A stretch of 32,265 nt of DNA from a virus (lineage: Duplodnaviria > Heunggongvirae > Uroviricota > Caudoviricetes): IMG/VR virus record IMGVR_UViG_2651869694_000010; one strand, given 5' to 3'. This document shows, piece after piece, positions 3,240-7,243 of the stretch. The notes under the pieces were generated by a model that did no database searches, was not told the origin of the DNA, and was given only the letters and a program-made list of their open reading frames with translations. Position 1 is the stretch's first letter. Every line of letters begins with the position of its first letter. Made by a program: the position numbers and the translations under genes.

Positions 3240-3375
3240 CGAAGTAGTTTACTAAAGCAGTTCTCATTTCAGGTGTTATTCACTTATTCCTTCTTTGAGT
3301 CTCTCCAATTAAGTACGAAGTCGTTTCTGTTATACAAGCCATTTATGCCGAAAGGCTCAAGTTAAGGAATGTAGA
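3240..3375 (+). promoter_or_regulatory. cspB-type 5' leader with cold-shock-gene upstream motif
   Basis: GCCGAAAGGC (3347-3356) about 20 nt upstream of the start codon resembles the conserved element in cspA-family 5' UTRs; boundaries are approximate. Confidence 0.3.
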
Positions 3376-3591
3376 ATGTCAAATAAAATGACTGGTTTAG
3401 TAAAATGGTTTAACGCTGATAAAGGTTTTGGCTTTATTTCTCCTGTTGATGGTAGTAAAGATGTGTTTGTGCATTTTTCTGCGATTCAGAATGATAATTT
3501 TCGAACCTTATTTGAAGGTCAAAAGGTTACCTTCTCTGTAGAGAGTGGTGCTAAAGGTCCTGCAGCAGCAAATGTCATAATTACTGATTAA
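3376..3591 (+). CDS. cspB: cold-shock protein CspB-like
   Basis: [23 protein letters not shown]...VHFSAIQ...[11 protein letters not shown] carries the RNP1/RNP2-like motifs of CspA-family proteins. Confidence 0.85.
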
Positions 3592-3872
3592 AATTCATAG
3601 TTTGTCTGTATACGATAACGAAGAAGGCTGATGCCTGAGTGGAGATACAGACAGAGTGGTGAATATTGGATCTCTTTAATAAATAGTAAGGAGGTCCAAT
3701 ACATGAAACAATGGCCAGCATATTTGGCAATAACTTAATCAGGAAAAGTATGCTAACCATTGTGGTGAAGTGCAGGTTTGCTGCATGAATAGTTTTACAG
3801 CAGAAGCTAACTGCTGGCATAGCAAAACAAAGTGCGTAAGTGGATGACTCCCACAAAAAGTACCACAATATT

Positions 3873-3954: not shown

Positions 3955-4125
3955 TCAAGCTACAGCTTTAAGATTTGTCTGGAATACTTTGTTGCAATGA
4001 GGGCAGATCAAAAGGGCACCTTTTTGTACTCTTGAAAAACTGTGTTCTGACTCTTGGGTGCAGTTTGGGCAGGAACATTTAACGAGATAATTACGGCGTG
4101 ATTTTGAGTCTTTACGTTCTGACAT
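3955..4125 (-). CDS. small C4 zinc-ribbon protein (about 56 aa)
   Basis: MSERKDSKSRRNYLVKCSCPNCTQESEHSFSRVQKGALLICPHCNKVFQTNLKAVA has two CxxC pairs; ATG at 4125 on the minus strand is preceded by AGGAAAA. The longer 4176 start is also possible. Confidence 0.45.
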   Translation of the reverse strand: MSERKDSKSRRNYLVKCSCPNCTQESEHSFSRVQKGALLICPHCNKVFQTNLKAVA

Positions 4126-4343
4126 AGGCTTTTCCTGTATAAATGGCCGTATACAGTACACTAAATATGAAAACATATCTCGTATTATTATTTAATATAT
4201 GATTTTCTTTTAAAATAATTACCCACATTTTTAATGTGTCTGTTTTTTAGCGCCGTTGAGAACAACGTTTGCTATAAAAACTAACCCATAGACTCCGATC
4301 TTTTCAAACATATTGCACCATCTGTGTACATCGGGGTGAGGAT

Positions 4344-4559
4344 ATGAAATCAATGGATAAGTTAACAACAGGTATCGCCTATGGCACATCGGCTGGTAAT
4401 GCTGGTTTCTGGGCATTGCAGTTACTCGATAAAGTAACTCCGTCACAGTGGGCTGCAATCGGTGTGCTGGGTAGTCTGGTTTTTGGCCTGCTGACGTATC
4501 TGACAAACCTTTATTTCAAGATTAAAGAAGACAGGCGTAAGGTTGCGAGAAGAGAGTAA
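4344..4559 (+). CDS. S: class II holin (phage 21 S-type pinholin) with dual-start motif
   Basis: [71 protein letters not shown] matches my recollection of phage 21 S and EssD/EssQ; Met1-Lys-Ser-Met4 gives the antiholin/holin alternative starts. Confidence 0.9.
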
Positions 4560-4563
4560 TCCA

Positions 4564-5115
4564 ATGACACAAGACTATGAACTGGTTGTGAAAGGAGTCC
4601 GCAATTTTGAGAATAAAGTGGCGGTAACTGTAGCCTTACGGGACAAAAAACGCTTTGACGGTGAAATTTTTGACCTGGACATCTCGCTGGACCGTGTTGA
4701 AGGTGCCGCGCTTGAGTTTTATGAGGCAGCAGCGAGAAGGAGCATCAGACAGGTCTTCCTGGATGTTGCTGCCGGGTTATGTGTAGGGGATGAGCAGTCG
4801 CCGGAAAAGCGCCCCATAATTTTAGAGGCGCAGAATGTGTGGATAACCTACAAAGGAAAGCTACCGGGAAGAATTACTGGTTCTCTGAAGACGCCACCGA
4901 CGGCATTGCGGTCAGAAAAAGATGATATTGAATCGCCCATTGAAAAACTGGAGGGCAGCGTCGCTGATCTGAATAAAAAATTGTCGGTGCTGATCCCTTC
5001 TGAAGATGAAAAAAAACGCCGCGATGAGCAGTTTGCGGCGTTTTACGATTATTGCATTGAAGTTACTCGCAGGAATTTTGTGAAGATTTTTGAAGAGGGT
5101 AAATCTCTTCAGTAA
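4564..5115 (+). CDS. ydfR: YdfR/DUF1327-like protein of unknown function inside the lysis cassette
   Basis: ATG at 4564 just after the holin stop; N-terminus MTQDYELVVKGVRNFENKVAVTVAL matches my recollection of K-12 YdfR. No transmembrane segment is evident. Confidence 0.5.
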   Translation: MTQDYELVVKGVRNFENKVAVTVALRDKKRFDGEIFDLDISLDRVEGAALEFYEAAARRSIRQVFLDVAAGLCVGDEQSPEKRPIILEAQNVWITYKGKLPGRITGSLKTPPTALRSEKDDIESPIEKLEGSVADLNKKLSVLIPSEDEKKRRDEQFAAFYDYCIEVTRRNFVKIFEEGKSLQ

Positions 5116-5323
5116 GCTTAATGGCGGACGCTGCAATTAATTCAGGAAGGTCCGCAAGGTCATCTGTCAGTGGATATGATGAAAAATCGGCGGCAGTTCT
5201 GTTAAGAAGCGCTTTAACTAATTCCTTTTCCTTCTCCGGCAACAAGTTGATTAGAGCTACGACTGCTTGCCTGAGTGCGATTAAATCAGCAAAAGTTTGT
5301 TTTGGTAGATTTGTGTAATCCAT
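5063..5323 (-). CDS. hypothetical acidic small protein, convergent with and overlapping the ydfR-like gene
   Basis: 86-aa ORF from ATG at 5321-5323 (minus), preceded by GAGGTG with 5-nt spacing. Predicted helical and acidic; I recognise no family. Confidence 0.35.
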   Translation of the reverse strand: MDYTNLPKQTFADLIALRQAVVALINLLPEKEKELVKALLNRTAADFSSYPLTDDLADLPELIAASAIKLTEEIYPLQKSSQNSCE

Positions 5324-5436
5324 AGTCACCTCTGTGTTTATCAGATTGACATCCTCCTCCCGCCAGTGCCCATCACTGGTGAGGTAAGATTTAACATATC
5401 CGGGGATTTGAAGCCGATAAATCCTGATAAATATCC

Positions 5437-6464
<1,028 letters not shown>

Positions 6465-6824
6465 ATTAATATTAAATCGGATTATTTTTAGCGCTGAATG
6501 TGAAATTTAAATAAAAAGGACTCTTCCATGAGTCAAAATCCTTGAAATCTTAAGGGTAAGATAAAAGGTCATTAGACAGAATGACACGTTTTATTAATAA
6601 ATAAAGCTATTGTTTCATTCGTGTGTTTTTCTTTACAAAAGTAATCCTTGCTATGGTTGGTTAATCATGCGTTAATGGTGTTCTGGTTTGTTACAAAATT
6701 ATCTGAAGCAGTCATTGTTATAATTTTATTATTTGTACCTCTTGAGATTTCCTTGTTGGTTTTTCTCTCTGATATTTTTTTTCGGACCATTCTGCCCAAG
6801 GGCTAACTTCTTCAAAAGGTAATA

Positions 6825-7040
6825 ATGATGTCTAACAAAATGACTGGTTTAGTGAAATGGTTTAACCCTGAAAAAGGTTTTGGTTTCATCACGCCGAAAG
6901 ATGGTAGCAAAGATGTGTTTGTCCATTTCTCAGTTATTCAGAGCAACGATTTCAAAACGTTAACTGAGAATCAGGAAGTCGAATTTGGTATTGAGAACGG
7001 ACCTAAAGGCCCCGCGGCTGTTCATGTAGTGGCACTTTGA
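6825..7040 (+). CDS. cspI: cold-shock protein CspI-like
   Basis: [36 protein letters not shown]... is a CspA-family sequence, located after Rz as cspI is in Qin. Confidence 0.8.
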
Positions 7041-7243
7041 GGTAGAAAATATTACAAACCATATTCACTTTAGATGCCCGTGTTGCCATGGTTCTCAGTA
7101 TAGAACATCATCTTTTGATGTTTCTGACAGGAATCCTTTCGGGGCAAAATGTATCTTTTGTAAATCAATGATGATTACATTTGATAATATTTCACAATAC
7201 TTAAATGTTAGCCGTCTGTCGTTAGATTTAAGAAAGTGAAAAT

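Follow-up and report, generated by a model that had tools for sequence, protein, structure and literature searches.

What occupies the space between the holin gene and the endolysin gene of a lambdoid prophage, and does it take part in lysis? This question is raised by a 32,265-nucleotide (nt) stretch of Caudoviricetes DNA, IMG/VR record IMGVR_UViG_2651869694_000010, which we refer to as the window and which comes from a lambdoid prophage resembling Qin, of which it forms the right arm. In its lysis cassette, the holin gene S and the endolysin gene R are separated by 877 nt (positions 4560-5436), in agreement with the gap of about 880 nt given by a first-pass annotation of the same sequence. 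The gap contains two convergent genes: a plus-strand gene encoding a long form of YdfR, the C-terminal extension of which we call A, and a minus-strand gene encoding an 86-amino-acid (aa) protein, which we call B. The first-pass annotation took the pair for a two-gene insert and proposed that it could be a lysis-timing regulator, an exclusion function, or a toxin-antitoxin-like pair. We lean, with moderate confidence, toward a reading in which B is a self-contained accessory gene of the moron type, situated in reverse orientation in a slot between ydfR and R; its expression, its silencing, and its binding to another protein are parts of this reading that we infer. The window matches E. coli isolate F1267 without a difference, and its identity to CFT073, APEC O1, S88, and phage 2H10 exceeds 99%.

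Evidence that B encodes a protein

B runs on the minus strand from an ATG at position 5323 to a stop codon at positions 5063-5065, a length of 86 codons plus stop. As the first-pass annotation had described, its product is acidic (isoelectric point, pI, 4.6) and helical, and the gene has its own ribosome-binding site, the Shine-Dalgarno (SD) sequence GAGG at positions 5328-5331, five nt before the ATG. An AlphaFold2 (AF2) model computed from 11 sequences predicts a three-helix bundle (residues 8-26, 30-48, and 56-74) followed by a disordered tail, with a predicted local distance difference test score (pLDDT) of 71. Both products of the gene pair are soluble, acidic to neutral, and without a transmembrane segment (grand average of hydropathy -0.05 and -0.75).

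The family phrog_2572 of PHROGs v4 matches B over its full length (residues 1-86 against profile positions 1-86, E=3.3e-52), and the Prokaryotic Genome Annotation Pipeline (PGAP) calls B as a coding sequence in every genome examined, where it appears as a RefSeq hypothetical protein of the WP_001306174 type. Thus, the earlier remark that no family could be recognized for the minus-strand gene holds as far as characterized families are concerned, but the gene does belong to phrog_2572 and is present in RefSeq. A word-indexed search returned only E. coli relatives of at least 77% identity. Exhaustive HMMER scans and profile searches reached further and revealed homologs of 89-93 aa with 40-54% identity in E. 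coli and Salmonella prophages, all of which retain the N-terminal motif and the three amphipathic helices. The A-B arrangement itself is also found, with at least 99% identity, in CFT073, APEC O1, S88, REL606, and phages 2H10 and PhiR63_1. The conservation in related prophages to which the first-pass annotation had tied the standing of the minus-strand open reading frame (ORF) is therefore found.

Across three lineages, B is preceded at the correct distance by an SD sequence, either GAGG or TAAGGA, and begins with ATG or GTG; alleles of B also show in-frame insertions and deletions. In all three cross-lineage comparisons, the ratio of nonsynonymous to synonymous substitution rates (dN/dS) is lowest in the B frame of all six frames, at 0.29-0.36. 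These observations lead us to conclude from the sequence that B is a genuine protein gene. Disrupted alleles exist in loci L017-L020 and L084 (IMG/VR prophage contigs), where either a 1-nt frameshift near the 3' end makes B longer and truncates A or a premature stop codon is present at codon 19; B is therefore dispensable in some prophages.

We also evaluated a 65-aa ORF that lies antisense to B on the plus strand (5121-5318; pI 10.2, rich in S, A, and R) and rejected it as a real gene. It has no SD sequence, no conserved start, and no PHROG match, its length is 65, 63, or 115 aa in the three lineages, and its basic composition is that of a non-coding shadow ORF. Since it has its third codon positions in common with B, it would be expected to stay open and to look conserved.

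Several candidate relationships of B were likewise discarded. The DUF1823 (PF08853) label that a B homolog carries in PhiR phage records is spurious, since the match spans only 30 residues and its score of 15.3 bits (E=0.023) is below the cut-off of 25, and a Pfam match to ABATE falls below the cut-off (E=0.07). A phmmer match to a 975-aa TPR-CHAT protein (E=6e-10, seven stretches) is an artefact of summing over repeats, with an hhalign probability of 0.1. Foldseek comparison of B with PDB and BFVD gave no match at E<1, and a profile search against PDB sequences gave only E>1. The defense models of PADLOC-DB v2 match neither B, nor the long YdfR, nor the 210-aa alternative cargo described below. 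A literature search using the protein, its accessions, the PHROG ids, DUF1327/DUF1823, and the PhiR and 2H10 phages found no paper that mentions B.

A variable module between ydfR and R

Alignment of the window to K-12 Qin, mEp460, and Stx2a_WGPS2, which lack positions 4900-5385 yet are collinear for S, the N-terminal part of ydfR, and R, delimits the extra material to A, B, and a 62-nt leader of B. In K-12 Qin, a 103-aa ydfR lies between essQ (S) and rrrQ (R), and its stop codon overlaps the rrrQ start. The YdfR proteins of mEp460 and Stx2a_WGPS2 have 104 and 114 aa and are followed by R about 50 nt later, and many Shiga toxin (Stx) phages also carry ydfR between S and R. The first-pass description of phage 21-type cassettes as having neighboring S and R genes is accurate for phage 21 itself but not for K-12 Qin, mEp460, or many Stx phages. 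The two-gene insert is correct to the extent that 4900-5385 is variable; ydfR, however, is a common resident of the S-R interval.

The ydfR-R junction exists in four states: a tight ydfR/R overlap (K-12), a 17-nt remnant (mEp460), a conserved non-coding block alone (Stx2a_WGPS2), and the block together with a cargo gene. B is one such cargo. The other is an unrelated 210-aa minus-strand gene with a strong AGGAG SD sequence, present in Stx1a/Stx2a phages (e.g., Stx1_14040; L006:1317-1949) and in E. coli strain CP55 (L110:2036-2668). It shares with B the upstream block, the leader hairpin (CCAGTGGTGGGCACTGG), and the downstream hairpin plus T-run, and the downstream hairpin is intact there. No Pfam, PHROG, PADLOC, NCBIfam, or PDB match was obtained for its product. 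In CP55 this gene is left unannotated by PGAP, and in the deposited Stx phage records its place is taken by a plus-strand read-through ORF of 263 aa that overlaps it. The occurrence of an unrelated gene between the same flanks points to the ydfR-R junction as a general, recurrent cargo slot.

Among 56 alleles, the A-B module has 0.04-0.12 segregating sites per nt, as compared to 0.40 in S, 0.27 in the N-terminal domain of ydfR, and 0.30 in R. This three- to ten-fold lower polymorphism indicates that the cassette has probably spread recently over mosaic backgrounds. B is present in approximately 294-315 of 5426 complete E. coli genomes (~6%) and in 8 of 50,697 phage records. Plaque-forming phages (2H10, PhiR63_1, PhiR5_1, and PhiR12) carry it, and lysis is therefore not impaired by B. 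The lysis-timing role that had been suggested from the location is unsupported: nothing links B to the timing of lysis, and homologs of B also occur after Rz, next to terminase genes. B is probably not a core lysis component.

Conserved flanks of B

The leader of B (5324-5385, minus strand) contains the SD sequence and a hairpin, CCAGTG-N5-CACTGG, at positions 5363-5379 (fold z=-3.1). It is preceded by the conserved non-coding block (5386-5436, minus strand; ATATTTATCAGGATTTATCGG...GGATATGTT), which is also directly upstream of R and is invariant in the three diverged lineages, including the Salmonella version, where no R adjoins. Within this block, a -35-like TTATCG (5420-5415), a conserved 16-nt spacer, and a -10-like TATGTT (5398-5393) form a weak candidate promoter, and we propose that the block may act as the promoter of B. 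The sole site found by a sigma-70 consensus scan is internal (5205-5176, minus strand), which is fewer than expected by chance. Inspection of the block by eye for LexA, Fur, sigma-32, and sigma-54 motifs identified none that is convincing, and the Rfam search produced only a sub-threshold match to GcvB (18 bits against 42). A terminator-like hairpin with a T-run is also present at 5456-5471 (minus strand), in the first codons of R and just upstream of the block; such sites are within chance expectation for the region.

Downstream of B, 19-54 nt past its stop codon, the minus strand encodes a GC-rich hairpin followed by a U8 run (5009-5044; arms 5017-5022 and 5035-5040, extended by A:U pairs), with a folding free energy of -14.6 kcal/mol and z=-3.8. 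It is a putative intrinsic terminator or 3' stabilizer of the B transcript, and it lies inside the codons of A for KKRRDEQFAAF. The eight pairs of the hairpin are kept in the three B lineages despite diverged surroundings, although with three lineages the statistical support is weak (39/500 shuffles reached the observed values). In the L105 lineage, a compensatory double change from G:C to A:U preserves the pairing at the cost of R to H and A to V substitutions in A, which argues for selection on the structure and not on the protein. In two forms that lack a reverse cargo gene the hairpin is degraded, by a synonymous mismatch in SS17 and by a deletion in ATCC 25922; the QFAAF motif is retained in both.

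YdfR and its module A

The plus-strand gene begins with an ATG at position 4564, four nt past the stop codon of S, and ends with a stop codon at 5113-5115. The first-pass annotation had assigned it to a soluble YdfR/DUF1327-like protein of 184 aa; the family assignment stands (PF07041, E=1e-42), and the length is 183 aa. The DUF1327 domain covers residues 1-112 (4564-4899), with 144.7 bits against a gathering cut-off of 25. For residues 1-72, AF2 predicts three strands and a helix (pLDDT 70-86). In K-12 YdfR, residues 1-72 bind the N-terminal domain of RNase E, which is its catalytic half, and the protein co-purifies with RNA (PMC13232886, 2026).

Module A consists of residues 113-183 plus the stop codon (4900-5115); the short forms of YdfR stop at the equivalent of 4899. 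AF2 predicts two helices for A, with low confidence. YdfR proteins fall into length classes of 103-116 aa (DUF1327 only), 176, 183, or 211 aa (DUF1327 plus A), and 268 or 296 aa (DUF1327, A, and another domain). A also occurs apart from DUF1327. A free-standing 73-aa gene of Salmonella prophages is homologous to it, as is the N-terminus of a 185-aa protein of O157:H7 SS17 that comprises A and another domain and lies alone between S and R. Because A occurs alone or fused to other domains, it is a real, mobile late-strand module. DNA resembling A is present in approximately 1086 E. coli genomes, as compared to 315 for B. Across lineages the A protein is barely conserved, with a ratio of nonsynonymous to synonymous polymorphism (pN/pS) of 0.8-0.9, except in the stretch encoding the hairpin and the stretch overlapping the tail of B.

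Three further observations concern this gene. A C-terminal domain of ~115 aa (…WECNRPSFVV…LTYLKVRI), for which no Pfam match was found, is fused to A with or without DUF1327 in ATCC 25922 (L108:1458-2351, plus strand) and SS17 (L109:1747-2307, plus strand). The DUF1327 domain (4564-4899) is unusually polymorphic in its protein sequence: the 56 alleles show 48 synonymous and 55 nonsynonymous segregating changes there, as compared to 83 and 32 in S and 135 and 59 in R. Selection on this domain, to which RNase E binding has been attributed, may be relaxed or may favor diversity. Finally, RefSeq/PGAP labels the intact 183-aa (or 296-aa) YdfR a pseudogene ("incomplete; missing C-terminus") and covers only its first 336 nt, both at window positions 4564-5115 and in L001, L007, L008, L009, L107, and L108. 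The long forms thus seem to be mis-annotated in a systematic way.

Convergence of A and B

The 3' ends of ydfR-A and B overlap by 53 nt (5063-5115), including both stop codons, in line with the overlap of about 50 nt noted previously. The length of 53 nt is shared by 73 loci; another 16 loci have an overlap of 59 nt, and a single locus has one of 52 nt. A match to A is found in 104 of 104 loci with a match to B, and the convergent overlap is intact in 90 of the 97 loci with a recognizable B ORF; the remaining seven carry a frameshift or a truncation or run into a contig end.

The convergence extends to the distant homologs. Phages of the L105 type have in the same slot S, a 243-aa DUF1327-A protein, a reversed B, and R, with an overlap of 59 nt. 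In Salmonella prophages (L098 and L010), the A-B pair is located after Rz/Rz1 and before DUF1441/GpA terminase genes, again with an overlap of 59 nt. There, A is the free-standing 73-aa gene, which has its own SD-like G-run and a start that overlaps the stop of Rz.

Surrounding lysis genes

The genes on either side of the module have the features of an S21 pinholin/SAR endolysin cassette, where SAR denotes signal-anchor-release. S (essQ, 4344-4559, plus strand) encodes a 71-aa class II pinholin of the S21 type (PF04971, E=7e-34; essQ is the PGAP name in identical genomes) and reads MKSMDK, a dual-start motif. R (5437-5970, plus strand) encodes an rrrQ-type lysozyme (PF00959, E=3e-24; rrrQ is the PGAP name) with a hydrophobic N-terminus that resembles a SAR segment. 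R is followed by rzpQ (DUF2514). Within rzpQ, in another frame, a 98-aa ORF (6118-6414, plus strand) with a lipobox-like LTSC corresponds to an embedded Rz1-type o-spanin, rzoQ in K-12.

Just upstream of the holin gene lies another small reversed gene, ynfU (3955-4176, minus strand), which encodes a zinc-ribbon protein (PF23499, E=5e-31); backward-facing ynfU and cspF are both found in the late leader of this prophage arm. Two plus-strand matches to the Rfam cspA thermoregulator, at 3300-3654 and 6670-7086 (135 and 115 bits against a gathering score of 78), lie in the leaders of the cold-shock genes cspB and cspI, one on either side of the lysis cassette.

Proposed role of B and alternative explanations

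B has two properties of a moron: it is present or absent among otherwise collinear relatives, and it has its own putative terminator downstream. We propose that its transcription unit would run from the block at 5386-5436 through the structured leader and its GAGG to the 86-codon ORF and end at the GC hairpin and U8 run (5009-5044). The convergent 53-nt overlap would then exist because the terminator of B lies within the long ydfR ORF, toward its 3' end, and B would always travel with A for the same reason. The plus-strand partner would be YdfR carrying a coiled-coil-like C-terminal module and not a separate inserted gene. B would be transcribed by itself, against the Q-dependent late transcript, and thus most likely in the lysogen. 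During lytic growth, Q-antiterminated late transcription across B would produce a full-length antisense RNA and silence it. The small, acidic, cytoplasmic three-helix product would presumably bind another protein to the benefit of the lysogen or the phage, through exclusion, anti-defense, or host modulation.

Several points weigh against this account. The scan for consensus sigma-70 sites calls no promoter upstream of B, and the candidate -35 element matches at 3/6 positions. The hairpin of the L105 lineage has a weak U-run or none, and there it may act as a stability element and not as a terminator. The contrast in dN/dS between the frame of B and its antisense frame (0.29-0.36 vs 0.33-0.58) is confounded by the shared third codon positions and by an alignment guided by the B protein, and selection on B within E. 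coli is mild, with 11 synonymous and 15 nonsynonymous segregating changes. Searches of Pfam, NCBIfam, PADLOC, PDB, and BFVD yielded no relative of B, by sequence or by fold, that has a known function. Finally, B is never found without a convergent A-type ORF, an observation that a functional pair and a shared terminator would explain equally well.

This last point bears on the alternative that A and B are a functional two-component module which, through protein contact or mutual control via the overlapping 3' ends, tunes R or YdfR and hence lysis or RNA turnover. In such a module, convergent transcription and RNA duplex formation would make the expression of B in the lysogen and of A and R in the lytic cycle mutually exclusive. 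The strict convergence of B with A across three lineages at 40-50% identity and in two genomic slots is consistent with this idea, as are the SD-like G-run and Rz-overlapping start of the free-standing A, the repeated fusion of A to DUF1327, which suggests a shared pathway, and the need for the late transcript to traverse all of antisense-B before reaching R. The RNase E and RNA binding of YdfR (PMC13232886) also fits. However, A has no need of B (~1086 vs 315 E. coli genomes), it also adjoins the unrelated 210-aa reverse cargo, its protein is weakly conserved (pN/pS 0.8-0.9) outside of the hairpin and B-tail stretches, and a mere dependence of B on the terminator that A contains would account for the co-occurrence. 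We regard the two-component module as the main rival of the moron reading, but as rather unlikely.

The conserved overlap may conceal a regulatory pair, although the odds of this are modest. In one specific form, which we consider improbable, the overlap is a switch: B made in the lysogen would neutralize YdfR-A or form a duplex with late mRNA upstream of R, and Q-driven transcription would shut B off and free the RNase E-binding YdfR-A. If so, the prophage state would be coupled to RNA turnover and endolysin expression, and overlapping 3' ends would constitute a new type of lysis or host-takeover regulator. Antisense coupling, which the first-pass annotation had read into the convergence, is possible, and the overlap is possibly explained in part by a bidirectional terminator hairpin shared at the 3' end of ydfR.

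A toxin-antitoxin-like or abortive-infection/exclusion pair, with a 3' overlap resembling type I antisense control, would likewise suit the prophage location, the small size, the convergent overlap, and the strict pairing of B with A, and the same prophage arm carries gnsB and other addiction-type genes. We nonetheless find it very unlikely. Searches of Pfam, NCBIfam, and PADLOC gave no match of the pair to toxin, antitoxin, or defense models, and its architecture is neither type I nor type II: neither protein is a small hydrophobic peptide like a type I toxin, both strands are protein-coding where type I has a non-coding antisense RNA, there is no Rfam match above threshold, and the genes are convergent, unlike the co-directional autoregulated operon of type II. 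In addition, A is widespread without B and is fused to other domains, unlike an obligate toxin or antitoxin.

Least credible is a non-functional B, an ORF held open by chance or by constraint on the opposite strand (the 65-aa ORF or features of the late RNA), or else a decaying remnant: the plus-strand ORF is indeed open in all three lineages, dN/dS discriminates poorly, within-species selection is mild, frameshifted and truncated alleles occur, and no promoter is called, but the SD sequence and start are conserved for B only, B keeps its length and ends while those of the plus-strand ORF vary, a regular amphipathic three-helix bundle is predicted, the ORF is intact in more than 90% of loci, and PGAP and PHROGs both treat B as a protein.

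Significance

The YdfR family, with phrog_2091, and phrog_2572 had already been catalogued as unknowns; newly recognized here are the distant homologs of B, the arms that are conserved on its promoter and terminator sides, the other cargo gene, and the modular nature of YdfR. If the moron reading of B is right, a junction within a very common S21-type cassette is a defined slot, the conserved arms of which exchange reverse-oriented genes. Such slots tend to house genes for lysogenic conversion, exclusion, and anti-defense, and both of the cargo genes described here are complete orphans. The analysis also corrects annotation, as an intact 183-aa YdfR is marked a pseudogene by RefSeq and the 210-aa cargo is left without annotation, and it highlights YdfR, a late protein of modular build for which an interaction with RNase E was reported recently. 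Since B is present in well-studied strains (CFT073, REL606, and APEC O1), its expression can be checked in existing public data sets.

Comparison with known systems

Like the S21-R21-Rz/Rz1 cassette of phage 21, the window has a dual-start PF04971 holin, a lysozyme with a SAR-like N-terminus, and a DUF2514 Rz with an embedded Rz1-like ORF; unlike in that canonical cassette, where they are not needed, it carries the accessory genes ydfR-A and B. The plus-strand gene resembles ydfR of Qin in its full DUF1327 domain and its essQ-rrrQ position, but whereas the 103-aa K-12 protein ends with a stop codon overlapping the rrrQ start, YdfR of the window has an additional helical module of ~70 aa (phrog_2091 type) and is followed by a reverse gene.

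Convergent 3' overlaps are known from the prophage-borne type I toxin-antitoxin systems txpA/RatA and bsrG/SR4 of B. subtilis, in which one partner is a non-coding RNA and the toxin a small hydrophobic membrane peptide. The A-B locus is similar in that convergent prophage units overlap at their 3' ends by tens of nt around a shared terminator, with potential for RNA-RNA control. It differs in that a soluble protein is encoded on each strand and that nothing points to toxicity.

The moron concept reportedly goes back to Juhala and colleagues, who wrote on lambdoid phages in 2000. Like the morons of these phages, B is present or absent among collinear relatives, it faces backward within the late operon, next to the lysis genes, and is carried by prophages and viable phages; it also has a ribosome site, a putative terminator, and a conserved upstream block of its own. 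A reference case is bor of lambda, a reverse-oriented moron beside Rz that encodes a secreted lipoprotein and has a mapped promoter and a demonstrated lysogen phenotype. Unlike bor, B is predicted to be cytoplasmic and is acidic, its promoter is a candidate, and its terminator would lie inside the coding sequence of its neighbor. The phrog_2572 family to which B belongs carries no annotation, and its genomic context, conserved flanks, and distant Salmonella relatives have been worked out here.

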